Source of the DNA: Eledone cirrhosa
Taxonomy: Eukaryota
Direction: 5' to 3'
Assembly (NCBI GenBank): GCA_964016885.1
Contig: OZ024741.1
Span: 46,934,001 to 46,998,000 of the forward strand
DNA: 64,000 bases
The position numbers and the translations under genes are program-made. Below the pieces are notes generated by a model. It saw nothing but the letters and a program-made list of their open reading frames with translations, was not told the origin of the DNA and did no database searches. This document shows positions 712 through 53,797 of the stretch, piece by piece (position 1 is the first letter of the stretch; each line of letters starts with the position of its first letter).

Positions 712-733
712 AGGGAGGCAATTCCTGCTACAT

Positions 734-4796: not shown

Positions 4797-5035
4797 TTTA
4801 TCCAATGCTGCTTCTACTTCCAATAGCCGTGCTTTAGAGACTGTTGACCAAAGGGCAACAAGGCTTGCGGCTGATACTCAACGGAAAATGCGTACTTATG
4901 TCTTTCCAAGGGATTCTTCCTGTTACTGGTCTAAGAAAGGTTTTCAATACAACCCCCAAGAGGACTACGCATCCCATCCACATATCATCATTGGTAGTAT
5001 GTCAACTGTTTGCGTCCATTGTAATGCAATGAGGT
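4797..5035 (+). mobile_element. Displaced N-terminal segment of the same RepHel, located after the stop codon
   Basis: Encodes KKGFQYNPQEDY..IIIGSMSTVCVHCNAMR, homologous to KAAFRYNPSEDY..ISIGKMDNVCTSCNAMK of Helitron 2. 5014-5035 is identical to 734-755. Confidence 0.85.
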
Positions 5036-12230: not shown

Positions 12231-12267
12231 CTTATATACATGTATATATACATGTATATATATATAT

Positions 12268-12319
<52 letters not shown>

Positions 12320-12337
12320 GTGTATATATATATATAT

Positions 12338-12467
<130 letters not shown>

Positions 12468-14446: not shown

Positions 14447-14482
14447 ATATATATATATATATATATACATGTATATATATAT

Positions 14483-14522
<40 letters not shown>

Positions 14523-14529
14523 ATATATA

Positions 14530-14572
<43 letters not shown>

Positions 14573-17180: not shown

Positions 17181-17211
<31 letters not shown>

Positions 17212-17927
17212 GTATTAGTTATACTATTTATGGTTATGTAAACACAAAACCTTAAGCAGTTGTAAGTATTTTACACACACCCTAAATAGTGGTAGGCAGT
17301 AATGTATTACTACCTTATTACCAGTAAGTTAAGTAGCTCAATGTAAAAACATCAGATGATTTACAGAGCAGTTATATGAAATATATGAATCAAATTGAAC
17401 AGTTCTTTGATTCATATATTTCATATATATATATATATATATATCCATATATATATACATGTATATATATATATATATATACATACATATATATATACAT
17501 ATATATATATATACATATATATATACATATATATATACATATATATATATATACATATATATATACATATATATATACATGTATATATATATATACATAT
17601 ATATATACATATATATATACATGTATATATATACATATATATATACATGTATATATATATATATATACATGTATATATATATATATATACATGTATATAT
17701 ATATACATATATATGTACATGTATATATACATGTATATATATATATATATATATACATATATACATGTATATATATATATACATGTATATATATATACAT
17801 ATATATGTACATGTATATATACATGTATATATATACATGTATATATATATATATATATACATATATACATGTATATATATATATATACATATATACATGT
17901 ATATATATATACATGTATATATATATA
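16551..17927. repeat. Interrupted (TA)n arrays with an embedded minus-strand family B fragment (about 17208-17424)
   Basis: TA repeats with TACATG/TCCA variants. 17208-17424 is the reverse complement of about 9595-9810. Confidence 0.9.
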
Positions 17928-18515: not shown

Positions 18516-21500
18516 ATGCCCACATGGAAACGTTCAAGACTTACCTCCAAAAAAGGTACAGCTATTGCTTTGAGACAACGAATTAGGCGTTCTCAGGTAT
18601 GAGTTCATTCACAATTGATTAATCCTTTATGCAATATTCTCCCTTAATGTTAGCAAGTACTGCGTTTATCCTAACTGTCACCACTTTTAAGCAACTACAA
18701 CATTCTAATCGTAGTTATATTAAATTTATTGTCTTACCTTGATTCCCTTTTGTTCATGTTAGACTTTTCTCATTTACTATTGACACTGCCATTGGCTTAG
18801 CTAACCAGTAGAATTAATTAATTTTCTCTAGGAAACACCTGCTGAGCGCGAATCTCGACTCGCTGATAGACGTCTTTCCCGGCTGGTTGAGTCACCAACA
18901 TCACGTACGACAAGGCTTGCTGATGTTCGCCTTCATCGCCAACAAGCGCTGGCGGAGGAATCACCAACATCCCGTCAAACGAGGCTTGCTGGGGTTCGCC
19001 TTCATCGTCAACAAGCACTTGCAGAGGAGTCCACGGCAGACAGAGACAACAGGCTTGCTGCTAAGCGTTCCCGGCATACGTTAACTACTACTACCAAGAG
19101 CTCAGGCTGGGTAAAAGCAGCCTTCAGATATAACCCCTCTGAGGATTACGGACTTCTGCCTACAATTTCCATCGGTAAAATGGATAATGTCTGTACATCC
19201 TGCAACGCAATGAAGTGGCCAGGCGAGGCGCCTTCTATGTGTTGTGCAGGAGGTAAGGTGCAACTAGGAGCATTGTCTGACCCGCCATACGTTCTTCTGA
19301 ATCTACTTACAGGTGACGACACTACGGCTACAACGTTCCGCCGTAATATGTGGAAATACAACTCCTGTTTCATGATGACCTCCTTTGGTGTAGACAATAA
19401 CACCAACAACAGCGTGAACCCCAACAACAACGTTTTCACTACATTCAGACTTCAAGGCCAATGCTACCATCTCATGGGTAGTCTTCGTCCGCATCCAAAT
19501 GAAGAGCCAAAGTTTCTGCAGGTTTTCTTTTTGGGTGGAGGTGAGGCCGATTTTGACCAACGCTGCAAGTTAAACGAGGGTGTAGATAGGCGAATAATAG
19601 CAGGTCTGCAGACAATGCTCCATGTGACTCATCCCTACGTTCACAATTTCAAGTTTGCCTTGGAACAAATTGAAACCACGCCGAACATCAAGGTGATTAT
19701 AAGGGCTGACAGGCGACCAGCTGGCGAGCATGCCCGTCGTTTCAATGCACCAAATACCAATGAGGTAGCAGTGATTTTGGTTGGCGAGGAGCACGGTAAA
19801 CGCGATATTGTCCTTCAGCACCGTGACAGTCGGCTGGTGTTTGTCACAGAGACACGTAGATCGTATGATTGCCTTCAGTATCCTCTTTTATTCCCCCACG
19901 GAGAGGACGGATACAATTTTGCTCTTCGTCATGTAAATTATTCCAATGGTAGTGAATCACGGAAATCCATTTCATGTATGGACTTTTATACCTACCGCTT
20001 TATGGTAAGGAGTGGAGATTTTAATCAGCTTCTTCGATTCAGGCAGCTGACGAATCAATACATTGTGGATATGCTTGCCAAAATCGAGGCAGAACATCTG
20101 CTTTTTATTCGACTCAACCAAAAGAAACTGTGTGCGGAGGAATACATCCATTTACAGGACGCCCTGATTCGTGATGGCTATGCCGGAAACGTCGGACAAC
20201 AAGTGATCCTTCCATCAAGTTTCACAGGATCCCCTCGGTATATGCACCAAAGAACTCAGGATGCAATGTCTTATATTCGTAAGTTTGGCAGGCCTGATCT
20301 TTTCATCACTCTCACATCATCGCAATCCAAAATGAGAGGAAATTCAAAACTACCTCTTCCGGGGCCAGGTGAGTAGTGACAGGCACGACCTCATAGCCAG
20401 AGTCTTCCAGCAGAAACTCAAGAAATTGATGTGGCTACTGAAAGACGGCAAAATATTTGGTGGTCTTAATGCATGGATGTATACCGTGGAGTGGCAGAAG
20501 CGGGGACTACCACATGCTCACATCCTTATATGGTGCAAGGACAGGGTACGGCCAACGGACATGGACAACATTATTTGCACAGAACTGCCCAATCCGCAAA
20601 CCGATGTGCAATTGTTCAACACCGTGAGCAAACAATTGATGCACGGACCCTGCGGCGCCCTTAACTTTAATTCACCTTGCATAGAGAATAACAAGTGCAT
20701 TAAAATGTTTGCACGACCTTTTACACGGGAAACACGCACAGGGATCGACGGCTATCCTATCTATAGACGACGCGCACCCGCGGATGGTGGGGCTAAAGCA
20801 AAAATAAAGCTGCACGGGCAGGAGATTGTCCTCGACAACAGGTGGGTGGTACCATATAACCCTCATCTTGCCAAGATTTTTAATGCTCACATCAATGTTG
20901 AGTCATGTACGTCGGTGAAGAGCATTAAGTACATATGCAAGTACATAAACAAGGGAGGGGATATGACTGTCATTGAACTCCAAGGTGGCAGGGCACAACC
21001 TGATGAAATACAACAATATCAAATCAGAAGGTACATTTCATCCAATCAGGCGATTTGGAGGATTTTTGGTTTTGACATTCATCAGCGTTCACCAACAGTC
21101 GTAAACTTGAATATTCACTTGGAGAATGGGCAAAGAGTGTACTATACTGACGAAACCGCCAGCCGCGTTGTGGCCAACCCACCTGCAACAAAATTAACGG
21201 CTTTCTTCCAATTGTGCCAAGAAGATCCGTTTGCTAAAACGCTTCATTATGCCGACGTCCCAACCTACTACACCTGGGCACATAATAAATGGACGAGGTG
21301 CCGACAGGGAGCACGCGTTCACGTGAACGGAGAAGACGTTTTTAAAAGCGATGCCATCGGCAGGGTGTACACAGTGCATCCAAATTACCATGAGTGCTTT
21401 TATTTACGTATGTTGCTGCACAGTGTTAGGGGTCCTACTTTTCACTGAGCTACGGCGCATCAATGGCAAACTCTGCACTACGTATAGGGAGGCATGTGCC

Positions 21501-23266
21501 AAACTTGGACTCTTGGAAGATGACGGTCAATGGGATCAGACTCTAGAGGAGGCTACTGCCTTCAAAGCACCAATTCAACTGGGCCAGCTGTTTTCGATCA
21601 TGCTGATGACATGCGGTTTGAGTGACCCCTTAAAACTTTGGGAGGCACACAAAAACAGCATGGCCGAAGACTTCCTCGCCGACTTCAGCGTCAGGACCCT
21701 ACGGCTGGGTTTGAATATAATTCTGCTATCTACAACGAGGCCTTACTCGACCTAGATAAACAAGTCCAAGCAATGGAAGGTCAGGGCGTCGCTACCTTCG
21801 ATTTGCCCCAACCACAGCAAGCATCCAGTTCATTCAACATCGAGTACATACGCGAGGTTAGCTACGACCAAGTGCATTTGGCAGTTTATGTACAGCTCAA
21901 CGAGCCTCGACTTTTGTCAGACCAGAGGACTGCCTACAACATGATAATCTCCAGTATTGACTGCAAAGCGGGAGGTATTTTTTTTCTTGATGCTCCGGTG
22001 GGAACAGGCAAAACCTTCATCATCAACTTGCTTCTGGCTAAAGTTAGGCAATGCAGACAAATTGCTTTAGGAGTGGCCTCCAGTGGCATAGCGGCAACCC
22101 TGATACATGGCGGTCGTACAGCCCATTCATTATTTAGGCTACCCTTAGATATATCCAAGAGGGAAACGCCCACCTGCAGTCGCGGCTCGACAAAAGGCAA
22201 AATTCTGAACGAGTGCAACCTCATCATTTGGGATGAAGCGCCAATGAGCCATAAAGGCGCCTTCGAGGCTCTCGACCGTACCCTTCAGGATCTTAGGCAT
22301 AATACATGGCTTATGGGTGGCGTGACAGTTTTGCTTGCTGGAGATTTTCGACAGACCCTTCCTATTATTTCGAAAGGAACAAGGGCAGACGAGGTGAACG
22401 CAAGCATCAAGTGTTCCTACTTGTGGCAGAATATAAAAACGATGCATCTTACAACTAACATGAGAGTCCATCTTAGTGGTGATGAAGAGACCGCGGTGTT
22501 CTCCAGGCAACTATTGGAAATAGGCAATGGCACTATAGTTGGCGAAAATGACGGTCCTATATGTCTTCCGTTTGGGCATGTTGTACCTAAAGCCGAAAAT
22601 CTCATGTCAACAGTGTTTCCTTACCTACCCAGAAATTACACTGATCCCGATTGGCTGAAGCAGCGCGCAATCTTAGCGCCGAAGAATTTCACTGTGGATG
22701 CATTAAATTTTAGACTCCTAGAACAACTCCCTGGTGATTCCATCAGTTACAAGTCCATAGACTCTGTTCCCAACACGGACAAGGCGGTGCATTACCCTGT
22801 TGAATTTCTAAACAGCCTTACACCACAAGGACTTCCCCAGCATAACTTGCTACTTAAAAGAGGCTCTCCAGTTATGCTGTTAAGAAACTTAGACCCTCCG
22901 AAACTTTGTAACGGAACGCGGCTGACCATTAAGACCATGATATCAAAAGTCTTAGAGGCTACTGTCTTAAATGGACCAGCCAGTGGTGAGGATGTCTTCA
23001 TACCCAGAATACTGCTCATTCCATCCGATATGCCCTTTCAGTTTCGACGACTGCAATTTCCATTGAAATTAAGCTTTGCAATGAGCATTAACAAGGCGCA
23101 AGGGCAGTCATTACAGGTGGTTGGCTTAGAACTTTCTGAACCTGTTTTTTCACATGGCCAGTTGTATGTTGGATGATCAAGGGTCGGGAGTCCACAACGC
23201 CTCTTCATCCATGCTCCTGAGGGCAAGACACAAAACGTCGTCTACCATGAGGCGTTAGAGAATTAA
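18516..23266 (+). pseudogene. Helitron RepHel gene 2, two exons (18516-18596 and 18832 onward), with frameshifts and a late stop
   Basis: CTSCNAMKWP..CCAGG, ILPSSFTGSPRYM, EWQKRGLPHAHIL, YICKYINKG, DAPVGTGKT, WDEAPM, GDFRQTLP, FSHGQLYVG*SRV. Confidence 0.95.
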
Positions 23267-25685: not shown

Positions 25686-25927
25686 CTTAGTGCCTTCGTG
25701 GGCCCCTGATATATTCAAGAGATATATTCTAAAAAAATATATATCTTATCTCAATTTACTTTACTTCATTTTATTTTATTTTATTTCATTTCATGTTATC
25801 TAATTCTATTTATTTACTTACTTGACTCCATTTATTCATTTATTTATTTATTTATTTATTTATTTAAATTTAAATTTTAATTTAAAATTTAAAATTTTAA
25901 TTTTAATTTTATTTATTTATTTAATTT

Positions 25928-25975
<48 letters not shown>

Positions 25976-26593
25976 TTACATTTAATTACATTTAATTATA
26001 CATTTAATTATATCTTACATTATATTATTTTAATTTAGTCTATGTTATTTGATTTTAGTTTACCTTATTTTATCTTATTGTACGATTATATTATATTATG
26101 TTCTATGTATATAATTTTTAATTTTAATTTTATATTATTTTATATTATTTTATCTCATTCCTTACCCTGTATCACTATTATCTGTATATTTTATATTTTA
26201 TATGTAAGTTTGTTATGTATTTCTTTGTATTTCTTTATATTTTCTTATTTTTATATATATTATAAGTCTGTTTTTTCACCTATTTTTTACCTATTTTTTA
26301 CCTACTCTTACCTAATCCCATCTATCTTATCTACTCTTGTCTGTTCTCTTATCCATGTGTCTACTCTTGTCTGTTCTCTTATCCATGTGTATGCTTGTAT
26401 GTAACTATATGTTGACAGCACCCCGCCCAACTGTGACTGATAGCACCTCTTATTTTTCATCCCTTATTTTTCATTGCTTAGTATTCTTATCTTTATTTTT
26501 ACTTTTACTTCCTTAATATCCTTTATCGTCTATTATTACCTTTCATTCTTCAATGTCTTGGATTTGTTATTGCTTGTATGGTATGTAATTAAC

Positions 26594-26651
26594 CTTTATG
26601 CTCTGATGAGTCCCACTTATAGTGCGGATGAAACAATGTTAGCAAGTAAAG
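26594..26651 (+). ncRNA. Minimal type I hammerhead ribozyme, family A 5' repeat
   Basis: CTTTA-TGCT-CTGATGA-GTCC..GGAT-GAAA-CAATG-TT-AGCA-ag-TAAAG. Confidence 0.85.
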
Positions 26652-26853
26652 ATATGCATATGCTATAAGCGTTCTTTGTTATTTATTATATTACGGCTCT
26701 GTCCTCTGACATTGAGCTAACCTTATACTGCCTGCTGGATAAGTGGAGTGTTATACACCCCTGATCCTTTCCCTAGTATACTATACGGCTCCCACTGGTT
26801 GAGCTTAAACTTTGATATACGCGGATTTGTGTCCTTGTATATTATCAGGCAGT

Positions 26854-29343
26854 ATGCTAACAAAGACATACTTACCCATTTCCTTGAAGAATATTCCCAC
26901 CCCCCCTAAAATCTCATATGAGAAATCATTGATAACTAGCATAAACTCATTCGTAAAATGTGTTCGGTGGCGTGCGTTCCACTTTGATAAGAAGTATGAT
27001 AGCCCTGAGGAGAGGCGTAGTTTTAATAATTATGGATTTAAGACCTATAGGAGCCCCCCGCATAATAGCCTGTTGGATAACTTCGAAAGTGAGCTATTAT
27101 CCCTTGTTAGGAATATTAGATATAAAAAATCTAGATGTACCAATAAATTTCAGAGTAAACTAAGTTCAATCGTTAGGGACTTTAGGGATAATAAATCCAT
27201 TCTGGTCCCCTCTGACAAAACTAAAAACTTATATAGTATGGATTATAAAACCTATCGAGGCTTCATTTATAATGAACTACATAGGAACTACAAAAAAACA
27301 ACGCAGAGTAATTTAGATAATATTAATCTGGAGGGGTATAACATAGTGGTAAAATTAGGTCTGGATAAACACACTCAGCCTTATTACCCCAAGCAGCCTA
27401 GATTCACCCTCAAGGACCACAAGGAAGATTTTATTAGCAGACCCTCAGTTAGGCTTATCTGCCCCTCCAAGTCTGACCTGGGGATTATTAGTAAGGGAAT
27501 CTTGGATAGCGTTATTCCCCTGGTTAGAGAAAAAACTTTCCTTGAGCTTTGGGGTAACAGTAGTGAGGTCATTATGTGGTTCTCTACGGATTGTGGTCGT
27601 GACTCACTAAAATTCATCCAATTTGATATTGATGCTTATTATACATCTATATCTCCTATTATCCTCAATAAGGCCCTCATCCTAGCCATGCAGAGGGGGG
27701 CAATTACTAGGCCACAGATAGATATTGTTCTCGCTGCACGTAAAACCATTATCATGTTTGAGGATAATCTATGGACGAGAAAAAACACACCTGATAATTT
27801 TGACATTACTATGGGGTCGAGTGACTCTGCTCAAGTCACCGACTTAGTTGGACTATACCTCCTCAATGAACTGCATAGTAACTTCCCTTTCCTTAGGGGC
27901 GGGTTGTACCGGGATGACGCCCTACTCTCCATAGATACTAGTAAGTATAATATAGTGCGCATTAGGAAAAAGCTGCATAGCTTTTTTAAAACATTTAACC
28001 TATCCATTACTATGGATGTAAATGATAGAACTGTGAACTTCCTAGATGTTACACTGGACTTGGATAACCATACGTACACACCGTACCATAAGCCCAATGA
28101 ATTGCTGACTTACGTGAATACCAACTCCAACCACCCTAGGTCTGTCATCAGCGGTATACTGAAGGGCGTATCTAACAGAATAAGTTCACTCTCACATAGT
28201 GAGGAGGCGTTTGACTCGCAGGCTGATTACTATAACGACGCCTTAGCTAGATCCGGCTTTAGGGACAAATTGTATTACACCCAGGGAAATAATGGTCCTA
28301 ATAGTAGCTCTACCAGTGTTGTTATAACACATAATATGTCCATTGGTAATCGAGGTGTCGCGAATGGGAGGGTTCTAAATGCCGGTGGAATGAAACAGCA
28401 GGACACCATTAGTCTAAGTAATAACAATAGAGGTGTCGTGAACGGGAGGTTTCTAGATGCCGGTGGAATGAACCAGCAGGGCACCATTAGTCTAAGTAAT
28501 AGCAATGGTAGTCCTCGTAGCTCCCCGCATGGACTAGGCGAGCATAGGAACCGTAGAAATAATAATGCTAATAATACTGATGGAAATAGTAAGAATAAAA
28601 AGAATAGAAGAAGATTGAATACATACTTCAACCCCCCTTTTAATTCTGAAGTGGCTATAAATATTCCTAGGGCCTTCTTCTCTGTGCTGGAACGGAACTT
28701 CCCTCCTGGTAATAGGTACCACTCTATCCTCAATAAGAATGTTGTTAAACTTTCGTATTCTACAACCCAAAATCTGGCCTCTCATCTGGCCATTACTAAT
28801 AATAAGAAAATAAAGGAAGGCCTGGACAACCTAAGCCTAGGTGAAAACTTGGTAGTGGACAGAGTGGGCAGAAACACTGGTGGTGATCATTCTGAGAATA
28901 GCATCACCAGAGGTTGTAACTGTAGAAGGGCTTCAGGCTGCCCCCTGAATGGTTTCTGCCTTGTTAGAAACATAGTTTATGCGTGTGATGTGGTAACTAC
29001 GGCGTCCACTAAGACCTATATAGGATCAACCTCCACCCCCTTTAAGACCAGGTTTAACTCTCATCAATGCACTTTTAGACATAATAAACTGAGGAACTCC
29101 ACCTCCTTGGCAGCGTACGTCCATAATTTAAAAAATGCACGAACACGTTACACACTTACTTGGCGGCAGGTTGCTAAATCCCATCCATATACTCCTCATA
29201 GTAGAGTATGTAACCTGTGCCTTGCCGAATCCCACTCTATTATATTTGCTAAATGCCCTCTACTAAATAGAAAGTCTGAAATTTTTTCCTCTTGCCCCCA
29301 CCGAATATTAAGCTCTTTCTTCTACTTTAAACCTGTTAGCTAG
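26854..29343 (+). CDS. Penelope-like RT plus C-terminal GIY-YIG endonuclease, 829 aa from the ATG at 26854
   Basis: SLKNIPTP..RWRAFHF..YGFKT N-terminus, SDKTKNLY, FDIDAYYTSI, ITMGSSDS, LYRDDAL, VNFLDVTL, CNCR..CPLNGFCL, IVYAC..YIGST, CNLCLAE..LNRKSE..CPHR. No internal stop. Confidence 0.95.
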   Translation: MLTKTYLPISLKNIPTPPKISYEKSLITSINSFVKCVRWRAFHFDKKYDSPEERRSFNNYGFKTYRSPPHNSLLDNFESELLSLVRNIRYKKSRCTNKFQSKLSSIVRDFRDNKSILVPSDKTKNLYSMDYKTYRGFIYNELHRNYKKTTQSNLDNINLEGYNIVVKLGLDKHTQPYYPKQPRFTLKDHKEDFISRPSVRLICPSKSDLGIISKGILDSVIPLVREKTFLELWGNSSEVIMWFSTDCGRDSLKFIQFDIDAYYTSISPIILNKALILAMQRGAITRPQIDIVLAARKTIIMFEDNLWTRKNTPDNFDITMGSSDSAQVTDLVGLYLLNELHSNFPFLRGGLYRDDALLSIDTSKYNIVRIRKKLHSFFKTFNLSITMDVNDRTVNFLDVTLDLDNHTYTPYHKPNELLTYVNTNSNHPRSVISGILKGVSNRISSLSHSEEAFDSQADYYNDALARSGFRDKLYYTQGNNGPNSSSTSVVITHNMSIGNRGVANGRVLNAGGMKQQDTISLSNNNRGVVNGRFLDAGGMNQQGTISLSNSNGSPRSSPHGLGEHRNRRNNNANNTDGNSKNKKNRRRLNTYFNPPFNSEVAINIPRAFFSVLERNFPPGNRYHSILNKNVVKLSYSTTQNLASHLAITNNKKIKEGLDNLSLGENLVVDRVGRNTGGDHSENSITRGCNCRRASGCPLNGFCLVRNIVYACDVVTTASTKTYIGSTSTPFKTRFNSHQCTFRHNKLRNSTSLAAYVHNLKNARTRYTLTWRQVAKSHPYTPHSRVCNLCLAESHSIIFAKCPLLNRKSEIFSSCPHRILSSFFYFKPVS

Positions 29344-30946
29344 CACTTCCTTATTCCTCCAGTTGGGCTGTCTTGTGTAACTGTCTCTGACGGTGTGTAA
29401 CTGTCTCCTATTGTTGGTCGTCTATGTATACGAGTCGGTGAATGTATACGTATGCCTGTGGGAGGATATTGATCTGGATATTGGGGTGTGCAGGGGAGTG
29501 TATGTTAATAAGCACCCCTGTTTGGCACAGTGGATGTAACCCATCCACGCTGGCCTACCCACCATTGGTGCATTGGTGGACCTATCCTGACGTATATCTT
29601 GTTGATCTGTACCTCTGTATGCGCATGAGTTGTGATGTAATGTATTTATGTAAAGCGTGTACTGCGATTTAGGCTGCACTAGTAGAAATTTAGCCTGTAA
29701 CTGTGGGCGGACCCGTGCCATCCCACCGTAAGCAGTGGATACGTGGCGCATGTACGTGTTGCCCTCATATTCTGTGGTTTAAGATCTACAGGCTGACCTC
29801 TGGGAGCTCTTGCCCGGGGTTGTAGTCTTCCTAGCACGATCGGCCTTCCATATATTGACGGTCGTTGTTATGATCCCGAAAGTAACGTTTTGGCCCCGAT
29901 AGCCCTCCGTAGTTACTAACGGTCTGTGTACACTCGAATCGGTCAATGGCACGTGCGGACATGAATATCTCCGTAGGATTTCAACTTTATTTTACTACAT
30001 CTCATCGTATGTATGTATTTATTTTGAATGTATTACCTGTGGTGGTGGGTCTGGTCTAATGTGGTATTTCGGTGTTTAATATCAGCTTTGACCCGTGTGT
30101 CCTACGCTGTGTGTGTGTGCATGTGTGTCCGTGTATACATTTATATGTGTATGGGTGTAGGTGGTTGTATGTGTCTGTATGTATATAAAAAAAAATATAT
30201 ATATATATATGTATACCGTCTCTGCATGTGCATGTGGTGTGTATACGTGCATATACGTGCTGAACATATTGATGTGTACAATCTTGTGATGTCCCAATGC
30301 GGTGACTTAATGGCTCTTGAAGCTATTTTTCATATATCTTCTGTCTTTTTATATATCTTTTGTATGCGCTACAACTGTGTCTGCTTGCTCTAACCCGCCT
30401 GCACCTCGCTTGCTAATGCACGTGAATTCTTCTACCTCCTTCGATGCACCTCTCTCTGACCATTGGACTCCTGCCCGGGTGTGAACCGGTTTGTGATTAC
30501 CCCACCGCTCAGCTGTGTGAATGCACACCCATGACTTTCGAGTGAACTTTTGAGACTGCCCAACCTGGGACGCCTCCATTGCCTTGCAATGGTCAAGTGA
30601 TACTGGTGACTGTGACACTTAGTGCCTTCGTGGGCCCCTGATGTTTTCAAGAAATATATTTTTAAAAAATGGTCAAGTGATACACATAACTGTGACACTT
30701 AGTGCCTTCGTGGGCCCCTGATATATTCAAGAGATATATTCTAAAAAAATATATATCTTATCTCAATTTACTTTACTTCATTTTATTTTATTTTATTTCA
30801 TTTCATGTTATCTAATTCTATTTATTTACTTACTTGACTCCATTTATTCATTTATTTATTTATTTATTTATTTATTTAAATTTAAATTTTAATTTTAAAT
30901 TTAAAATTTAAAATTTTAATTTTAATTTTATTTATTTATTTAATTT

Positions 30947-30986
<40 letters not shown>

Positions 30987-31604
30987 TTACATTTAATTAC
31001 ATTTAATTATACATTTAATTATATCTTACATTATATTATTTTAATTTAGTCTATGTTATTTGATTTTAGTTTACCTTATTTTATCTTATTGTACGATTAT
31101 ATTATATTATGTTCTATGTATATAATTTTTAATTTTAATTTTATATTATTTTATATTATTTTATCTCATTCCTTACCCTGTATCACTATTATCTGTATAT
31201 TTTATATTTTATATGTAAGTTTGTTATGTATTTCTTTGTATTTCTTTATATTTTCTTATTTTTATATATATTATAAGTCTGTTTTTTCACCTATTTTTTA
31301 CCTATTTTTTACCTACTCTTACCTAATCCCATCTATCTTATCTACTCTTGTCTGTTCTCTTATCCATGTGTCTACTCTTGTCTGTTCTCTTATCCATGTG
31401 TATGCTTGTATGTAACTATATGTTGACAGCACCCCGCCCAACTGTGACTGATAGCACCCCTTATTTTTCATCCCTTATTTTTCATTGCTTAGTATTCTTA
31501 TCTTTATTTTTACTTTTACTTCCTTAATATCCTTTATCGTCTATTATTACCTTTCATTCTTCAATGTCTTGGATTTGTTATTGCTTGTATGGTATGTAAT
31601 TAAC

Positions 31605-31662
31605 CTTTATGCTCTGATGAGTCCCACTTATAGTGCGGATGAAACAATGTTAGCAAGTAAAG
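31605..31662 (+). ncRNA. Hammerhead ribozyme, family A 3' repeat
   Basis: Identical to 26594-26651. Confidence 0.85.
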
Positions 31663-31811
31663 ATATGCATATGCTATAAGCGTTCTTTGTTATTTATTAT
31701 ATATTATATATATATATATATACATATATATATACATACATATATATATACATACATATATATATACATATATATATACATATATATATACATATATATA
31801 TATATACATAC

Positions 31812-32229: not shown

Positions 32230-32680
32230 TACAATATTAATAAATGGAAACTATATTTATAAAACCATATTTATTTCATTATATATATTTCGGGGATATC
32301 ATATTAACAATATGCTATGCCTTCCTCAGACAAAATACAATATAAACAGTTTTATAGATAAATAGATTCGACATACCGTAACAACATCGACTTGTATTTG
32401 AAAAGGTTGATTTGGCAGACTTGAATACAAGTCGATGTTGTTACGGTATGTCGAATCTATTTATCTATAAAACTTTTTATATTGTATTTTGTCTGAGGAA
32501 GGCATAGCATATTGTTAATATGATATCCCTGAAATATATTTAATGAAATAAATATGGTTTTATAAATATAGTTTCCATTTATTTAATATTGTAAATATAC
32601 TCCAAATTCTTGTCGAGTGCTTTTATATCAGTTATAAATATTTACTAGTTGTAACCCAACAATTTAAATATAACTTTCCA
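32230..32680. mobile_element. Fold-back Penelope-like terminal repeat, family E: about 170-bp inverted arms, each with an HHR
   Basis: 32230-32400 is the reverse complement of about 32422-32593. HHRs at 32266-32344 (-) and 32478-32556 (+): CTGAGGA..GAAA-TATATA-TA. Confidence 0.8.
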
Positions 32681-32835
32681 TATATATACATATATATATA
32701 TATACATTTATATATACATATATATATACATTTATATATACACATATATATATACATATATATATATACATATATACATAAATATATATATATACATATA
32801 TATACATATATACATATATACATATATATATATAC

Positions 32836-33583: not shown

Positions 33584-36407
33584 AGAGATTATATCCTTAC
33601 CAGAAGACGTGACAGAGTGTCTGTTGTAAAGACTAAATCCCTCCCCCATGAAGAATGCACCTCCCAACATAGACTGATAATTAGCGACCTCATAGTCAGG
33701 ACGAGACGTACTCGACAGCAGAAGAGGACTATCCTCAGGAGAAAAATATGGAAGCTAAAGGACCCCACAGCCAGGAATAAATTCCAAAGCATATTACTTG
33801 ATACTTTCGACAGTAAGGAAGAACATTTAGAGTCGGACAATATAGAGGGAGAGTGGGAATTTCTGAAAGCAAACCTGCTGTTGGCGACAGACGAAGTCTG
33901 TGGCTGGAGCAGGCCTGTAGGCAGGAGGAGAGTAACATGGTGGTGGAACAGTAAGGTGGAGGGGTCAATTAAGGCCAAAAAGCAGGCTTGGAAAGTATGG
34001 CGGGATGGGGGAAGTAGAGAGGACTATCAAGTGGCCAGGAGGGAAGCTAGGAGACAAGTGTACTTAGCAAGAAGGGAAGCTGAGGAAAGAAAGTTCAAGC
34101 ATGTTCTACAACGCGATGACCAAAAACGTGAGGTGTTCAGGATTGCTAGGCAATGCGTCAAGGAAAACCGTGATATTGTCGGGGAGAAGTGTGTACTAAA
34201 CGACGATGGCACACTTGCCATCACCGACGCTGATAAGAAGGTAGCTTGGAAGTGTCACTATGAAAGGCTACTAAATGAGGAGAATAAATGGGAGAAAGAC
34301 AGTCTCCCCCATATCGACCCAATAGAGGGACCAGCAGTGTTAGTCGAGGGGAGTATAATAAGTAAGGCAATCAAGGATATGAAGACGGGTAAGGCGGCTG
34401 GGCCTTCGGAAATAGTTGCTGAGATGCTGAAGGCATCTGGCACGGTGGGACACACGATGGTTACCCGCATAGTTAACCAAGTCGTACAGAATGGGGTTGT
34501 TCCGAAGGACTGGCATAGCAGCATCATCGTTAACTGTTATAAGGGTAAAGGAGACGCCCTAGATAGGAGTAACTATAGAGGCATTAAATTAATCGACCAG
34601 GTCATGAAGGTCACGGAAAAAGTAATAGCGCAACTAATCAGAGAGAGAATTGACCTAGATGAAATGCAGTTCGGGTTTGTGTCAGGCAAAAGTACCACAG
34701 ACGCTCTTTTCATAGTACGACAACTACAGGAGAAGTACCTAGCTAAAGGTAAACCCTCTACTTAGCTTTTGTCGACTTGGAGAAAGCCTTCGACAGAGTC
34801 CCCCGCTCCATTATCTGGTGGGCTCTTAGAAAACTAGGCGTTGACGAATGGCTTGTGAGGGCTATACAAGCCATGTATAAAGAAACAGTCAGCAAGGTTA
34901 GAATTAACAACGAATATAGTGAAGAGTTTAGCGTAAAAGTTGGCGTCCATCAGGGCTCTGTTCTCAGCCCACTACTATTTATTATTGCCCTTCAGGCTAT
35001 AACAGAGGAGTTCAAGACAGGCTGCCCATGGGAACTCCTATACGCAGACGACCTGACACTCATAGCGGAATCAATGGCCGAGCTAGAGAAGAAATTCCAA
35101 ACATTCCAAACATGGAAGCACGGCCTAGAGTCAAAAGGACTTAAAATTAACCTGGCTAAGACCAAAGTACTAGTTTGTAGGAAAGAAAACAAGGCGGCGG
35201 TCCCTTCTGGGAAATGGTCGTGCTCGGTGTGTAGGAAAGGCGTAGGTAGAAACTCCATTTTATGTCCTAAATGCAAAGTATGGGTGCATAAAAGATGTAG
35301 TGGGATCACAGGTAAGCTAACTAAGAACACAGATTTTACATGTGGCCGGTGCTCTGGTGCAATAAGTAGCAGCAAGTGCCCACAAATACTAGCTCTTTCA
35401 ATTGCGCAGAGGGTTCTATAGAAATAGTGGACAGCTTCCGTTACCTGGGCGATAAAATCAGCAGTGGGGGAGGGTGCTCTGAAAGTACTGTAGCTAGAGT
35501 CAGAACTGGTTGGAAAAAGTTCAGAGAGCTTATACCACTATTAGCTGCTAAAGGGTTCTCACTAAAAATGAAAGGGCAGGTTGTACGATGCCTGCATACG
35601 AACAGCAATGCTGCATGGCAGTGAGACCTGGGCATTGTGTGCAGAGGATATACGCAGACTAGAGAGGAACGAAGCTTGCATGCTCCGCTGGATGTGTAAC
35701 AGTAATATACGTGAACGGCAAAGCATAAACGAACTAAGGAAAAAATTAGAGATAAGAGGGATCAGATGTTGTTTACTCGAGAGAAGGCTACGTTGGTATG
35801 GACACGTGATGCGCATGAAAGTCGATAGCTGTATAACAAAGTGCAGGGCAATAAAGATAGACGGTAGTCACGGAATAGGCAGACCTAGAAAAACCTGGGA
35901 CGAGCTGATAAACTCCGACATCACACACTTACACCTCTCCAAGACAATGTCACTGGACCGAGACCTTTGGCGGTACTCAGTAACAGAGAAGACCCGCCTT
36001 ACCTAAATATATAGTAAAACCTACTCCAGCCAGTAGGCATCTCTAACAAAATACACCCCGTCCCACCACCACCACCCCCACCCCATCCACACCACCCCGT
36101 TCTATGTAAAGTTATGTTGGTGCCGCGCCATCGAGGCCGAAACAAATGAGATCGTGTAGGTGTCACGACAAAAAAACACACAGTCCACGCTGTAATGTGG
36201 CCGTGTAGGCAACACGGTAAAAACCTCCCAGACCCACACTGTAAATGTGGTTGGTGTTAGGAAGGGCATCCAACTGTAGAAAACCTGCCAGACAGTCCTA
36301 TGCGAGCAAGACAATCACTCTTGCCTCAAGTGGGATTACCCCCGTCCAAACCCATGCAAGCGTGGAACACGGACGTTAAACGTTGATGATGATGATGATG
36401 ATGATGA
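33584..36407 (+). mobile_element. RTE LINE, longest copy (end of APE domain plus RT), frameshifted
   Basis: DYILTR..SQHRLI (APE end), TWWWN, the same RT as the 10485 copy, 9-nt duplication (FQTFQT), (GAT)n tail. Confidence 0.94.
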
Positions 36408-40966: not shown

Positions 40967-41141
40967 ATATATACATATATATGTAGGAGGTGAGTTTTAT
41001 TGTAGTACAATGAAGCAATGCAGATATCGGATAAGAAGCACTCTACAGTTTGTGGGACTGGAGTATGCATAATATAAGATCAAAAGATGGTTAAAGGAGT
41101 TCCATATAGAAGGAATTGGATTGGAGAAGTTGTTTGCGATA

Positions 41142-43395
41142 AAAACAATGAGAACCTTAATTATGTTAACTTTAAATCTAACCATCCTACCAATATCAAG
41201 AATGCTATAGTTAATAATATTGGAAATAGAATATCTAACATATCTTCTAATAAAAACATCTTTGATGCTAACGCCAATTACTATAATAACGCACTTTCTA
41301 AAGCCGGCTATCCAGATAAAATCAAATATAATAAAGAAACAAATTCTAGAAAAACTTACAGTAGAATAATTAATCATAACCATTCCAATAATTTTAATAA
41401 AAGACCTAGATACAAAAACATAATCTGGTATAATGCTCCTTTCTCCATCTCTATTAATAACAATATTCCTAAATTATTTTTTTAGTGCCTTAAATAAATG
41501 CTTCCCTCCCTCACATATCTATAGTAAAATATTTAACAAACACACCATCAAATTTTCGTATTCTACATCCTCCAATATTTCCAACATCATCTCTAAACAC
41601 AACAACAAAATATTAAATACTAAATCTCTTCCTTCCAATATTGAATTTCATAATAACAGTAATAGTACTCCCGACGTCATTGTAAACCCTAGGCTAACTT
41701 CTGTAAACCCAAATACAACGTCAAACACAACTTCGCTAAATGTTCATAATGAAACTCTAAATCAAGAAACTATTATTCCTATTATTCCTATCGCAAACAA
41801 CTTCTCCAATCCAATTCCTTCTATAGATAACACTAGATCACTCATTAATAATCTCTCTAATTGCAACTGCCGCATTAAAAATAAATGTCCTCTCAACAAC
41901 CATTGCCTCGATAAAAACTTAATTTATGAATGTAAAATTATAACTAGCACCAATTCCTTCACCTATTTTGGCTCCACTTCCACCCCTTTTAAAGCTCGTC
42001 TCTATAATCATCATTCATCTTTCAAATACAAACTTAAAAGAACTAACACTGCTCTCTCAGAACTCATATGGTCCTTAAAAGACAAAAACATTAAATATAC
42101 CATCTTTTGGAAGAAGATTTCTTCTGCATCCTCATACTTGAACAGCTCTCTATCTAAAATCTGTAATCTCTGCCTAAATGAAAAATTTACCATTATCTCT
42201 AACCTAGATTCTATAATAAATAGACGCTCAGATTTGTTTTCTATCTGCCTGCATAAATTCCATAGAACTTTTCACAAAGTATACAGTTAATATTCAATTC
42301 TTTATCAATTTAGAATCTTTTCTCAAAGGCACATATACATACACCTCTTTAAAATATACCCATCTACCTTACTTTAAAGGGCATTATACACTCTATAATA
42401 CTCGTTTACTCATTACCCTCATTCTATCTTCTCGTAAAATCATAGCATTTGTTTTTGTCATTTGAATATTCATCCGCAATCATTATTATTTTTTCTCTCT
42501 ATCATAAATCTTTTTAATCTCAATTTCATCCTTAATTTATTATTATTTTTTTCTCCCCATCAACGAACTCATTATTAATACATATTAACTCTTTATTCGC
42601 ACATATCATCAATTCAATCAATATACAAACTTTAACTTCACATTATTTTTCTCAAATCCTTCTACACACAAACCTTAACAATTTTTCTCTTCGCTAATTT
42701 TGAAATTGCCACAATACATACATTTCTTCTTTTGACGTTAGAATATTCACCCACAATTATTATTTTTTTCTCTCTATCTTCATACATAATTTCCCTTCGT
42801 TAATTTTCAAATTCCTTTAATTTATACATTATCTTCCAACGGTTCCCAACCTCTCTATATTAAAACAATATATCTTTTTCTCAGTTATAAAAACTATCTC
42901 TTTCTCTCTATCACCCATCTCTCCCTCTCCACCTTCACTCTCATCTCCTCCCCCCTTTTTCATCCTTTCCACTTTCCCCTCCCTAAATAAAATATTTTTC
43001 CTCGCACATATCCTCCCTTCGTTAATTTTCAAAATTTTTAATTTATACAGTATCTTCCAACGGTTTTCAACCTCTCTATATAAAAAATATATCTCCTCTC
43101 AGTTATAAAAACTATCTCTTTCTCTCTATCACCCATCTCTCCCTCTCATCTCCTCCCCTTTCATCCTCCCCCCCCCCTCTCTAAATAAAATATTTTTCCC
43201 AATATCACATCAATCTAAAACCATTTTTCATATGTTGATTTAAAACTGCACTATCCACAAGTGTTTTTTAGCCTTCATATCATGTTCTCCTGTTTTATCT
43301 GATGAAAACACAAATATTATTGCTTGATGATGTTTGTTTTTGAAATGCGCATAATAAAATATATGGAACTCCTTTAACCATCTTTTGATCTTATA
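41142..43395 (+). mobile_element. 5'-truncated Naiad-type Penelope element, family D (thumb, GIY-YIG, 3' repeat)
   Basis: YVNFKSNHP, IIWYNAPFS, FSYST, CNCR..CPLNNHCL, LIYEC..YFGST, CNLCLNEK..INRRSD..CLHK. Frameshift in a T-run near 41480. Confidence 0.9.
43291..43361 (+). ncRNA. Type I hammerhead ribozyme, family D
   Basis: TGTTTTAT-CTGATGA-AT-rich stem II-GAAA-TGCGCA (palindrome)-TA-ATAAAATA. Confidence 0.85.
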
Positions 43396-43403
43396 TTATA
43401 TAC

Positions 43404-44382: not shown

Positions 44383-45205
44383 TAGATAAATCTACCAAGA
44401 GTTTACGGTAGTGTCCAATCCGTATGAAGAACTCAATGTAATCCGGATATCATGGAAAGAAGAGATGCAATGAAAAATCACTTTCGGTGAAAGATAAACG
44501 GAATACAGAGTCAAGATAAAATATTAAAAAAATAATGAATAAAACAATGAAACAGTTCCTTATATTAAACAAAAAAAGTTCATTATTTAACGATCGTTTC
44601 TAGGATATATATGTGTTAGAATTGGCATGCATATTCAACAGATCTATGTACAAAATTATACAAAATTATACAAACTATCAAAATTAAATATACATACCAA
44701 CACATATATATGCCGTCTTCAGAAATAATGAAATATATTTATTGATAATAACAACAATTCAAAATTACAGGTCTGTTTGGGAACAGAGTTCAAATTGACC
44801 AATGGAAACACAAAAAGTTTATACAGTTAGGTGTGTGTATATATGTAAGTAACTTCGTTCACAGATATGCATAAAGATATATGTTCACATGCATACGCAT
44901 GCCAAAAAGATGTATGTAAATACAAAAATTCAAGGCTAATGTCTCTGTATGTTTATAATCTACAGATAAAATATGTATACACATATAAATATAAAAATAA
45001 ATATATACACACATTCATATACTCACACATATACGTACATTCACACACACACGCGCGCATATACGCATAAACATACACACAACCACGAACATACATACAC
45101 ACACACACCCCCACACACATATATATGTGTATATACTATTATCACAAGCATATGGACATTAATGCGCGCACATAAACACTGCCACACATATTTAGATCCA
45201 GATAA
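44383..45205 (-). mobile_element. Penelope-like terminal repeat, family F
   Basis: Contains an HHR and the bulged hairpin; sister copy at 61170-61830. Confidence 0.7.
44579..44732 (-). ncRNA. Type I hammerhead ribozyme with a 115-nt stem II
   Basis: Minus strand: TTCATTATTT-CTGAAGA-[115 nt]-GAAA-CGATCG-TT-AAATAATGAA, with a perfect 10-bp stem I. Confidence 0.8.
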
Positions 45206-45380: not shown

Positions 45381-45443
45381 ATATATATATATATATACAT
45401 GTATATATATATATATATATATACATGTATATATATATATATA

Positions 45444-45846
45444 TAAGATTAAAATACTTGAGTGCGTTGGAGTTAAACACACTCCTCGTATTAGAGAAAT
45501 GACAGTAAAGTTATAGCTCAATGTAATTCAACAGAGCCGTAAAATCATAAATATTTATTATAAATATTTATATATATTTTTATATATATTTTTTCACCAT
45601 ACTTTATTTTTATTTGATATTTTTTCTTACCCTGTCAAAAATTTATATACAATTTGTTGACCTTAAATGATACGTATGATGTAGTTTTATATATTTTTTA
45701 ATGTCAGTATATTATTCCATTGTTTTTGGTATTGTTTATGCACACCGTCAGGGTGGTTATTCTATTATAATGATTATTATATTATAACGAGTATATTTAT
45801 ATTTAAATAAGTGTTAGTATGTGTTTGTGTAAATGTGTATATACAT

Positions 45847-45891
<45 letters not shown>

Positions 45892-47985
45892 GCTTTTTAT
45901 TTCTTATTATCCATTATATTGTATTCTATATCATATTATAATTCTTACATTGTATTACCATGTTGTGTTTCATGTATTTGTCTTATACTGTACTTTCAAT
46001 GTGGGTTTGACATATTACTCGCTCTCTTGCCTTATACTCTATATTTGCAAATGCACACTTTTAGCTTTAGCATATCTTTCCATGATGTCTTTCCTAAGTT
46101 TTCATAGATATAAATTCCCCGTTCTTCTGAGTTTTGGCTTGTTCTGGCCGTTAATACTTCTTGTCTCTTTACTTGCTCTGATGAGTCCCTATTAATGGGA
46201 CGAAACACTGTCAGCTAATAAAGACTTTTGATGTATTGAAGGCTTCTTTGTTTATTTTTTATAATTTTACGGCTCTGTTGAATTACATTGAGCTATACCT
46301 TTACTGTCATTTCTCTAATACGACGAGTGTGTTTAACTCCAACGCACTCAAGTATTTTAATCTTATTACGGCCCTCGATTGGTTGAGCTTTATCCTATAT
46401 ACTGGTGTTTTGGCCTTTATATACATCTGACAGTATGCTAACAAAGAGCTACTTGCCTTTTTCTCTGAAGAATATTCCCATCCCCTCTAGAAATACTTAT
46501 GAAAAACTCTTGATTGCTAGCGTTAACTCTTTCGTACAATGGATTAGATGGCGTGCTTTCCACTTTGATAGTAATAGGAATATGATTAACCCCCGGGATA
46601 AGACTCCATTCAATAACTTTGGCTTCAAGACTTATAAAAGTCCACCGCATAATGTTCTATTAGATAGTTTTGAGAACGATTTACTTTCCCTTGTCAAAAA
46701 TATTAAATATAAGCCGCATAATAAATATGGGAACTATAATAAATTTGACAGGTTCCAGTCTAAACTTAAGAATATTGTTAAGGATTTTAAAGGGAATAAG
46801 TCTATTCTTGTCCCGGCTGACAAGACTAAGAATCTTTACTCTATGGATTATATTGCCTACCGTAATTTTATTTATAAGGAGCTACATAAAAATTACAAAA
46901 AGACAACGCAGGATAATTTAGATCAAATTAATAATGAGGGCCTCAAGATAGTTTCGGATCTGGGTCTTGATAAGTATACCCAACCATATTACCCTAGGGA
47001 ACCGAGATTCACACTTAAGGATCATAAGGTAGACTTCTTAAGTAATCCTACTGTTAGACTTATCAGTCATTCTAAGTCTGATATAGCTATAATTAGTAAG
47101 AAAATTCTTGACCTGATTAAAATGAACCTTTTCCCTAACGGTAGGTATAATCTATGGGGGAATACTATGGATGTTATTGATTGGTTCTCTGGTATTAATA
47201 AGCTTAAGTCTAGTAGGTATATCCAGTTTGATATAGACGCCTATTACACGTCAATATCACCTATCCTCCTTAATAAAGCCTTAATTATGGCCATGCAAAT
47301 GTCTAGTCTTAAGCGACCCCAGATTGATGTTATACTAGTCGCCGTAGGACTATCATCAAATTCGAGGATACACTTTGGACGCGTAAAAACACACCCAACA
47401 ACTTTGACGTTACCATGGGTTCGAGTGATTCTGCACAGGTAACTGATCTTGTTGGGCTGTACCTCTTGAACGAACTTTATGTTAGCTTTCCGCACCTTAA
47501 AGGTGGACTTTATCGTGACGATGCATTATTTGTGATAAACTCTAGTACTAATAGCATTGAACATAATAGGAAGAAGTTACATAAATTTTTTAAAAATTTT
47601 AACCTTTCAATCACGATTGATAAGAATGATAGAGCAGTTAACTTTTTAGATGTGACATTGGACTTGGTCACTAATGATTATAAACCCTTCCACAAGCCAA
47701 ATGAGACACTCTCTTACGTTAATCCTAATTCCAACCACCCTAATTCTATGATTAGTTCTATTATTAATGGTGTATCTAATAGAATCTCCACACTCTCTAA
47801 AGATACAGGAATCTTTAATTCACATGCTGAGTATTATAATGATGCCCTAGCCAACTGTGGTTACTCTGGTAGAATACATTATAAAGATGACAACCTTGGA
47901 ATGACTCTGATTACCCATAATAACGTGATATCCCATAATTTAGCCTTGAATGGGAGAAGAAAATTTAGGAATCATAGAAATTACG
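45444..47985 (+). mobile_element. Naiad-type Penelope element, family C: inverted repeat piece (45444-45550), pLTR and frameshifted RT (ATG 46435), GIY-YIG missing
   Basis: SLKNIPIP..RWRAFHF, ADKTKNLY, FDIDAYYTSI, MGSSDS, LYRDDAL. 45444-45550 is the reverse complement of 46260-46366. Confidence 0.9.
46166..46224 (+). ncRNA. Canonical minimal type I hammerhead ribozyme, family C
   Basis: GCT-CTGATGA-GTCCC tattaat GGGAC-GAAA-CACTG-TC-AGC, with distal TCTTTA/TAAAGA pairing and a GUC cleavage triplet. Confidence 0.92.
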
Positions 47986-48923
47986 CATTAACTCCCCTTG
48001 GTCACACACACACTTCCGGAATATAATATTATCACACAAAACTAAACAACATGATTTATTAATTAAGAATCGACATGATATGGTTTATAACTTGGTTATA
48101 TGCTGAACCATCGTGGATTATACGATAGACCCGTGTTTTATATATTGCGTCTCATGGATTATGTGAGTGGTGGTGTACGCGAAGACAGTGGTACTGATTT
48201 GCCTACGATATAATATGTTTTATAATATGTTTGAGATTTTTGATATTTTGGTGTTTCTCTACATTCGGGATTGTATATCAAACAGGTGTATACGAAAAAA
48301 TGATTTAATAATTCAGCCCACATAATAATATCAATTGCCTGCTTCAACTGCCTGACGCTGCAAGTAACAATCTGACGCACTCTAATCCTGTATAAATAAG
48401 ACACGCGTGCATGCTACACGTGAGATTGTTTCATACACTGACTACTCTAAACTTTCCTCTTGCTTTATCTTCATAGACTGCCAATGCTTCATTTTTATTT
48501 TTATTATTATTTTTATTTTATTTTTGTCCTTTAACCTTTATATGTAAATTGCCATGCTATATCATTTTGATGGATGTCATCCCACTGTGGGTCAATATGT
48601 GCATATGTTTTTATACGTCTCTTGTGTTGAAAAGGAGGTCAAGTATGTTATAGATCACTTAATAGTTGCTCCGAAGAATCCAAACCTCGGTTTGGAGAAA
48701 ACAATTGTAAGCAAATAAATGATTTAAACTGAACTTTGATTATTGTAATCTCTATATAACTGCTCTGTAAAACAACAGATGTTATTACATTGAGCTATTT
48801 ATCTTACTGGTAATAAGATAGTAATTAATGACTATCTTTCACTATTTGGGGTTTGTATAAAAAATATAAAACCATAAAAGGCTTTATTACATACATAACC
48901 ATAAATAGTATCCTTAATACTAT
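47985..48923 (+). mobile_element. Family B terminal repeat with HHR-like motif (48666-48714) and bulged hairpin (48762-48796)
   Basis: Matches 5061-5779 and 8896-9810. Core CCGAAGA retained, but GGAAA is mutated to GAAAA. Confidence 0.72.
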
Positions 48924-49332
48924 GTACAATACATATATATATACATACATATATATATACATAATATATATACAACATACATATATATATACATATATAT
49001 TACATACATAATATAATACATATATATATACATATATATATACATATATAAACATAATATATACATCATACATATATATAATACATATATATATATAATA
49101 CATACATATATATACATATATATATACATACATATATATATATACATATATATATATATACATATATATATACATACATATATATATACATACATATATA
49201 TATATATATACATATATATATACATACATATATATATACATACATATATATATACATACATATATATATATATACATACATATATATATATATATACATA
49301 TATACATACATATATATATATATACATACATA

Positions 49333-49484
49333 ACTAGAACTGTTTCATTCATTAGAAATCATCAGGAATCTGAATGAAACAGTTCTAGTCCTGTAGAATC
49401 TCTTCTATATTAAAACTGTTATACTCTGCTATGTATTGAGTACCTTACTTACTGTGGTTACCTCCGATTCAACCCGGAATAACG
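49333..49484. mobile_element. Tiny fold-back remnant of a further HHR-bearing family (G)
   Basis: Inverted arms ACTAGAACTGTTTCATTCA / TGAATGAAACAGTTCTAGT. HHR halves on opposite strands; bulged hairpin at 49422-49442. Confidence 0.65.
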
Positions 49485-53600: not shown

Positions 53601-53797
53601 TTTACTTTTATTTTTATTCTTATCCTTTATCGTCTATTATTACCTTTCATTCTTCAATGTCTTGGATTTGTTATTGCTTGTATGGTATGTAATTAACCTT
53701 TATGCTCTGATGAGTCCCACTTATAGTGCGGATGAAACAATGTTAGCAAGTAAAGATATGCATATGCTATAAGCGTTCTTTGTTATTTATTATATTA
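50685..53797. mobile_element. Second family A insertion: inverted pLTR (about 50685-51432, -) joined to a 5'-truncated 3' part (about 51434-53797, +)
   Basis: 51434 onward matches 29239 onward. HHRs at 50819-50876 (-) and 53698-53755 (+). Confidence 0.9.

Follow-up and report, generated by a model that had tools for sequence, protein, structure and literature searches.

The window analysed here comprises 64,000 nucleotides of the Eledone cirrhosa genome (assembly GCA_964016885.1, contig OZ024741.1, positions 46,934,001 to 46,998,000 of the forward strand), and positions given below count from its first base. Self-BLAST shows the window, part of a 3.0-Gb genome, to be a nest of mobile elements within long (TA)n arrays. 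The family A element (25688-31702, + strand; self-BLAST and junction walk) is a Penelope-like element in partial tandem, in which a 5' pLTR, two hairpins and an ORF are followed by a 3' pLTR, and which is inserted directly into (TA)n. The 5' pLTR contains a minimal type I hammerhead ribozyme motif (26598-26644, + strand; core start at 26603), identified by a motif scan and by-eye reading against the min-HHR description in PMC4209133; cleavage is predicted after 26640, which places it about 51 nt ahead of site 1. No Rfam family matched at gathering score across the window, nor at E values up to 5 within 26550-26900. Downstream lies hairpin 1 (26695-26718, + strand), which has a GCUC/GAGC basal stem, a 3' UU bulge and an upper stem (fold z -2.5; 6/200 shuffles equally stable). 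A spacer (26719-26786, + strand) separates it from hairpin 2 (26787-26805, + strand), which taken alone folds with a stability no better than that of shuffles (z +0.5) and is supported by its conservation across relatives. Copies end just before one hairpin or the other, at site 1 (26689-26693) or site 2 (26780-26786), and hairpin 1 plus the spacer form a 92-nt "tail" that is found only in site-2 copies. The family A element itself ends at site 1, where the 3' pLTR, with its own hammerhead, runs into (TA)n (31609-31702, + strand; motif scan and junction walk). The interval to which the original prediction was attached, 31660-31710, holds this junction, while the hairpins themselves lie at 26695-26805. 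Each element has the order pLTR hammerhead, hairpin 1, spacer, hairpin 2 and start codon, with 48-80 nt from the hammerhead GAAA to hairpin 1 (21 relatives) and 10-54 nt from hairpin 2 to the ATG.

The intact 829-aa ORF of family A (26854-29343, + strand) encodes a reverse transcriptase (RT) with a C-terminal GIY-YIG endonuclease. A Pfam search of the ORF matched nothing, and a sequence search of the PDB returned no Penelope structure (best E 0.016); the best Foldseek matches of the predicted structure (pLDDT 83) are TERTs (E 2e-8, TMq 0.31). The protein carries RWR at position 38 (RWK in the alignment consensus), DKT at 121 and YRDD, together with CxCx5C (CNCRRASGC, 688), CxxC (CNLC, 786) and CxH (CPH, 814), the latter three being invariant across 48 sequences. 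For the CCHH motif, which the Hydra clade lacks, a check made with no reference alignment saw a single invariant His within the endonuclease core. With a single ORF, a telomerase-like RT and a GIY-YIG endonuclease, the elements are Penelope-like retroelements (EN+), and partial tandem pLTRs, inverted 5'-truncated copies and the predicted minimal hammerhead motif in the pLTR are all present. Their sequence motifs match the description of the C-terminal EN+ Hydra clade in PMC8557442 (RWK, DKG changed to DKT, a CxCX5C linker, CxxC and CxH around E and N), and the hammerhead, the (TA)n targets and the tandem and inverted pLTRs are further likenesses that point to this clade. The units are 3.9-5.0 kb long and the tails 90-167 nt, compared with "generally <3 kb" and 30-40 bp in the Hydra clade section of that paper, which describes neither the hairpin pair nor the rule for ends that we report here. 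Assignment to Nematis or Neptune was rejected on the fit of the motifs to Hydra. Non-LTR retrozymes were also rejected, since they need head-to-tail tandems of short hammerhead units, whereas the short copies here are head-to-head and have coding full-length relatives.

The window holds several further families of this kind. A second family A insertion is head-to-head (50685-53797), its inverted arm ending at site 2 (about 50685, with hairpin 1 at 50753-50774) and its direct arm at site 1 (53797). Family B is represented by a direct copy ending at site 1 (5064-5779, + strand; self-BLAST and junction walk), by two subfamily copies ending at site 2 (9470-9808, + strand, hairpin 1 at 9636-9669; 17208-17420, - strand, hairpin 1 at 17336-17369), and by a pLTR with a site-2 end (47981-48923, + strand, hairpin 1 at 48762-48795). 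This pLTR is joined to the family C element (45443-47980), which comprises a short inverted site-2 arm (45443-45551), a 5' pLTR, hairpin 1 (46271-46294), hairpin 2 (46370-46389) and the 5' part of the ORF. At 47851-47981 the family C ORF directly abuts the 3' region of family B with no (TA)n between them, a chimera that would have arisen by template switch or by deletion between two elements. Family E forms a short palindromic insertion (32230-32685; L091), with its left arm ending at site 1 (32230) and its right arm at site 2 (about 32685; hairpin 1 at 32599-32618). Family F contributes a site-2 copy (44383-45110, - strand), whose hairpin 1 has a long apical domain (44431-44512), and a site-1 copy (61170-61736, - strand; junction walk). 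Two families were absent from the original prediction: family I (40983-43399), with a short inverted site-2 arm (hairpin 1 at 41040-41064) and a long direct arm that carries the 3' part of the ORF and ends at site 1 (43399), 4 nt before the hairpin position; and family H (49331-49484), with a site-2 arm (hairpin 1 at 49423-49441). Variants of the hammerhead core, CCGAAGA in family B and CTGTTGA in family F, mark candidate ribozymes at 5692-5723, 44596-44641 and 61241-61286. The flanks of copies elsewhere in the genome hold about a dozen more hairpin-bearing families, and elements often insert into each other's (TA)n. The window also contains a LINE-like family with an RT, a PHD finger and (CAT)n/(TGA)n ends, likewise within (TA)n (9995-14570, 33586-36407 and 55894-56985), and two Helitron-like elements with a PIF1 helicase (701-5032 and 18832-23176), the second of which has a Helitron N domain.

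Seven (TA)n junctions had been predicted to lie just before bulged hairpins, and walking each ended copy against a longer relative confirmed them all. The last shared bases are 31702 and 53797 in family A (equivalent to 26691 and 26693, hairpin 1 starting at 26695), 5779 in family B (48758; hairpin 1 start 48762), 32230 in family E (32593), 61170 in family F (44516; hairpin start 44512) and 45443 in the inverted arm of family C (46366; hairpin 2 start 46370), while the alignment of the inverted family A arm ends 2 nt before hairpin 2 with one mismatch in its last bases. Hairpin starts at 26695, 26787, 48762, 46370 and 44512 were as predicted; that of family E is at 32599, one base later. We then counted breakpoints in the 30 best own-genome copies each of families A, B, C and E (30 of the 40-52 listed matches per family), anchored just upstream of site 1, a sample from searches listing the 40 best-scoring copies that is consequently biased towards young ones. 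Among these 120 copies, 112 have their end immediately ahead of one of the two hairpins, eight read through and none ends elsewhere. The predicted gap of 1-5 nt was right in placing ends just before the hairpin and slightly narrow: the observed gap runs from -10 to +1, mostly -2 to -8, measured from the last alignable base to the hairpin, with TA microhomology blurring the exact base.

Both hairpins provide ends in all four families, as had been foreseen, the numbers for site 1, site 2 and read-through being 12/15/3 in A, 20/8/2 in B, 12/16/2 in C and 21/8/1 in E. With the family A anchor moved 215-365 nt further upstream (n=30, loci partly shared with the 120-copy sample), 13 copies end at site 1, 13 at site 2, three read through and one ends elsewhere, cut by a (CAT)n-ended element. 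Direct copies end at site 1 in eight cases and at site 2 in five, and none of the eight read-through copies has a whole ORF upstream. The second hairpin predicted for full-length family B elements is present 5 nt after the shared end ..TAATACTAT in two copies (L036, L041), in which this sequence is followed by a second GCTC...TTGAGC hairpin and then by the ATG. It is also found in family E (read-through copy L113) and in read-through copies of family F, where its loop is about 125 nt; DNA searches missed even the window copy of this last family, so that its evidence comes from chance copies in flanks and from a pattern search which by design enriches ends that contain CT. We rejected the possibility that an end before a hairpin is merely the junction of head-to-tail units, because two sites exist and site 2 takes in the first hairpin. 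The 5' ends of the arms showed no tendency to cluster where the hammerhead would cleave, though the anchors exclude main arms that short. In contigs of four sequencing runs from one study, loose TA ends occur at 26687 and 26785, with a depth step after 26785; these were not counted as evidence.

The hairpin recurs in distant relatives, with the consensus GCUC-stem-UY/UA bulge-GAGC, mostly twice upstream of the ORF. Of 78 metagenome loci at 32-40% protein identity, 42 retain the start of the ORF together with 170 nt or more of the sequence before it; two hairpins are present in 26 of these, three in one, one in 11 and none in four. In 8400 shuffles, 8166 had no hairpin and three had two, and on the opposite strand two hairpins were found in 0/42. 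Two relatives (L128, L151) have a possible third, degenerate hairpin ahead of hairpin 1. Among 81 distinct hairpins, picked by sequence only, the basal stem is almost invariant (GCUC/GAGC, with UCUC/GAGA in six), the bulge is UU in 56, UC in 19 and UA in six, and ACU follows it in 60. The first three upper pairs above the bulge form in 73/81, 54/79 and 48/66 with several pair types, a covariation reached by 0/5000 shuffles with relatedness left uncorrected, and the apex is free. The counts of G-U versus A-C pairs in these hairpins fail to separate RNA from single-stranded DNA. Judged from these sequences, the motif is old, and with its basal stem and bulge fixed and its apex free it resembles a protein-binding site, which we infer it to be. 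The spacer is 33-59 nt in 30 relatives, while the longer spacers of the window families fold back on themselves. By hand count, 15 of the 23 junctions visible in relatives lie 0-6 nt before a hairpin, five of them joining non-TA DNA; one of the other eight has a variant hairpin, and seven are elsewhere or unclear.

Ends could in principle be set by TA microhomology alone, with hairpins that function in translation or in stabilising the 5' UTR and stand at the ends by coincidence. The bases from -10 to -3 are A/T-rich in relatives, and hairpin 2 sits close to the ATG, as this explanation would have it. It is already largely refuted and we give it hardly any credence: TA patches in the copied RNA that are equal or better go unused (+102 to +105 in B; +25, +34 and +69 in E; -44 to -32, +28 and +56 in A), the non-TA junctions hold the same register, site 2 moves with hairpin 2 across natural spacings of 55-167 nt, and the pairing of sites described below would be left unexplained. 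The original prediction that ends are tied to the hairpin, rather than to any TA patch, is supported. The hairpins might instead cause the RNA to be cleaved, or its 3' end to be formed, immediately on their 5' side, with ordinary target-primed reverse transcription from the resulting RNA ends. This would account for the uncopied hairpin, and in anole RNA-seq data read ends coincide with start sites (PMC11167929), although such read ends can derive from genomic copies. We regard it as very unlikely, since site-2 arms pass uncut through site 1 for kilobases and the size of the in vitro product was reported to be unaffected by a 3' extension of the RNA (PMC11167929).

Head-to-head inverted insertions follow a rule that the original prediction had not included: by hand tally, 57/58 pairs have one site-1 end and one site-2 end, compared with a discordant share of 49% expected under independent choice (P about 5e-17). 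The 57 discordant pairs are made up of 29 from the 120-copy sample, another 17, six from the further-upstream family A anchor (two of these paired by coordinates only), three of family F and two in the window. Four inverted copies have a read-through other arm, for which the far end was not scorable or the score was taken from the far end. In further families, 11 site-2 arms have partners at the site-1 position, -8 to +1 from the hairpin, in a search that is blind to pairs of two site-1 ends and in which most candidates had no partner in range. The one exception among the 58 is a family F pair (L097) with two site-1 ends and mirrored flanks, which is perhaps a later DNA palindrome; a second exceptional pair, outside the tally, is that of family H in the window, in which the partner arm ends about 35 nt before the hairpin. 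Mirrored duplications that include the flanking microsatellite occur in L097 (903-1329) and in L056 (near 1230-1320), and suggest palindromes formed later in the DNA or faulty assembly of (TA)n arrays.

Which arm is longer varies between the inverted pairs: it is the one ending at site 1 in about 15 and the one ending at site 2 in about 14, which means that neither can be a mere copy of its partner. About 15 pairs have a site-1 arm with sequence that is absent from the site-2 arm, which itself bears the tail, and in two of these loci (L046, L048) the arms share no overlap at all; both arms thus appear to be templated separately. Many inversion joints have an overlap of 1-7 nt. Short arms stop near -190 from hairpin 1 in family E, beside an initiator-like TCACT, and at -260 to -285 in family C (L091-L120, L061-L090). 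These stops are possibly the RNA 5' end or a strong stop; if they mark the RNA 5' end, a jump to the 3' pLTR is needed, the alternative being a circle made by the hammerhead.

A single priming event, followed by fold-back or template switch onto the new cDNA, would likewise yield one end of each type if the second end came from an endonuclease cut or a polymerase stall at a hairpin of single-stranded DNA. Such "EN-mediated resolution" is proposed in PMC8557442 and self-priming in PMC3846280, and about ten pairs have equally long arms that form near-perfect palindromes. We nevertheless consider this origin unlikely, given the direct copies that end at either site, the pairs whose site-1 arm extends beyond a tail-bearing site-2 arm or does not overlap it, a stutter at site 1 that resembles initiation, and the initiation at both sites reported in vitro (PMC11167929). 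Alternatively, each hairpin could position a start with the arms drawn from two RNA molecules or from two successive rounds, provided that some asymmetry in the complex imposed a different end on each arm. The sequence covered by one arm frequently recurs in the other, and each can extend to a whole ORF (L204/L205, L216); in addition, minimal hammerheads are thought to act as dimers (PMC4209133). This variant seems to us somewhat less plausible again, as identical RNAs offer no plain reason for the near-complete discordance, the spacer range is narrow, and six arms that begin at site 2 extend just 11-19 nt past hairpin 1 in the upstream direction, near the expected start of the site-1 cDNA.

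The stutter concerns family B, whose template has two CT units ahead of hairpin 1. Runs of (CT)3 or more, ranging from 3 to 47 units, are present at 16/23 site-1 ends of this family and in 0/17 read-through copies; (CT)n is found at 0/135 ends of families A, C and E or of family B at site 2, and at 26 of about 1100 other (TA)n tract starts. Insertion into pre-existing (CT)n(TA)n targets was rejected as the main source, as the partner flanks of stuttered ends are plain (TA)n without AG/CT. Reiterative copying at initiation fits the (CT)n best, later growth of the tract being possible. Family C shows a variable count of a 9-nt T-rich unit at site 1, including in copies that end at site 2 (L064, L066, L068-L070, L072), which could reflect slippage or subfamily variation.

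We propose, with a probability of roughly 0.62, that each of the two hairpins on a single RNA is occupied by one RT subunit and that the two subunits prime from both nicked target strands. The two bulged hairpins between hammerhead and start codon, folded as RNA, would each bind one subunit of the protein encoded by the element. An RT held in this way would start within a few bases of its hairpin, on the 5' side, where the A/U-rich template can pair briefly with a nicked (TA)n end, and the positioning hairpin itself would stay uncopied. With both target strands nicked, both subunits could prime on the same RNA and yield a site-1 cDNA and a site-2 cDNA, the latter carrying hairpin 1 and the spacer as the tail. 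Joining of the facing cDNAs, often through a few bases of microhomology, would give a head-to-head inversion with exactly one tailed end, while completion of only one start would give a direct copy from either site. Early synthesis may slip on a short template repeat to produce (CT)n, and probably invisible (TA)n as well. Annealing of nicked (TA)n as the primer, part of the original prediction, agrees with the short TA microhomology at junctions and with the stutter; it is at odds with the five non-TA junctions in relatives and with the start site in PMC11167929, described there as non-homologous to the cut DNA. The latter also counts against docking on two hairpins, as do the stability of hairpin 2, the two exceptional pairs and the 8/23 junctions in relatives. 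Moreover, the same stretch of pLTR is often present in both arms, which requires displacement of the first cDNA by the RT that follows. The hairpins also lie near the transcript 5' end, and a full-length copy could then be made only by way of a template jump, from a circular RNA or from a longer tandem transcript.

Two internal start sites and a one-ended tail were already known from published work, a point absent from the original prediction. PMC8557442 and PMC3846280 describe a tail at one end only, ascribed to the endonuclease or to self-priming, and the former names the formation of Penelope-like tails and inverted ends as an open question. The closest counterpart is Poseidon PAc of Anolis carolinensis (PMC11167929), which has two internal starts downstream of the hammerhead with the tail as the stretch between them, and whose protein, predicted to be dimeric, extends both strands in vitro and requires RNA to +172, about 55 nt downstream of the second site; we count these properties in favour of docking on two hairpins. 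It is the only in vitro system, and there the RNA determinant has been narrowed to the 172 nt and no further. Poseidon PAc belongs to another clade, and its starts lie within the ORF in what is described as an AC-rich stem-loop, where the GCUC/GAGC motif is not evident. By eye, the RNA sequence printed in that paper could fold, at about +121 to +147 and immediately beyond the +111-118 site, into a hairpin with a 3' bulge, of which we found no discussion in the text; nor does the text report pairing of sites within a single insertion.

No report of the GCUC/GAGC motif or of the strict pairing of sites was found in Rfam or in the literature searched, which covered the text of freely available papers; the terms "hairpin" and "tail" were absent from the portion consulted of bioRxiv 10.64898/2026.07.22.740005. 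Within that literature, the hairpin pair is a new cis-element and the pairing a new rule in a known kind of retroelement. Both are real and predictive, and the mechanism is what we propose to explain them.

The parallel with telomerase drawn in the original prediction holds for the protein, whose top fold matches are TERTs, and is loose for the RNA. Template-flanking elements of telomerase RNA likewise place an RNA structure beside a short internal template that is copied reiteratively by an RT of the same kinship. The template-boundary element of telomerase, however, lies 5' of the template and ends copying, whereas the hairpin here lies 3' of the start, copying goes on for kilobases from the adjacent start, and site-2 copies extend through hairpin 1. 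In twin priming of L1, two target ends prime two cDNAs on one RNA and leave a head-to-head inversion with a microhomology joint, as proposed here; the second start in L1 is variable, internal and set by base pairing, with arms that do not overlap, while here a duplicated RNA motif sets both starts and the arms overlap. The 3' stem-loops of L2/CR1 LINEs are bound by the RT near the start, with repeats made by slippage, and are upstream of the start and copied, unlike the hairpin here, for which binding would be analogous. Hepadnaviral epsilon is also a bulged hairpin that places initiation, differing in that it templates protein priming in its bulge.

A short, clade-wide, covarying motif at a fixed distance from the start, together with a near-absolute one-of-each rule, makes the question of tails and inversions directly testable. 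If the mechanism is true, a telomerase-related RT is placed on an internal template by RNA structure and the one-ended tail is explained; it would also provide a 20-nt signal for internal initiation that is portable, an exact rule by which element ends can be annotated, and a link to microsatellite growth. More tentatively, and with some doubt, programmed double priming by a dimer on a duplicated hairpin, in which the two target strands prime simultaneously at two fixed internal sites, could be combined with a telomerase-like stutter that adds microsatellite units and helps to grow the targeted (TA)n, and all tailed Penelope clades may share this layout, built from other sequences.

Asn/Ser-rich low-complexity inserts, in frame between the RT and the endonuclease, were also observed in family A (28348-28600) and at 41370-41860 of the window, and include a 78-nt tandem. 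Residues 480-579 of the family A model, the region of these inserts, have low pLDDT, and similar N-rich inserts are described in PMC3846280.
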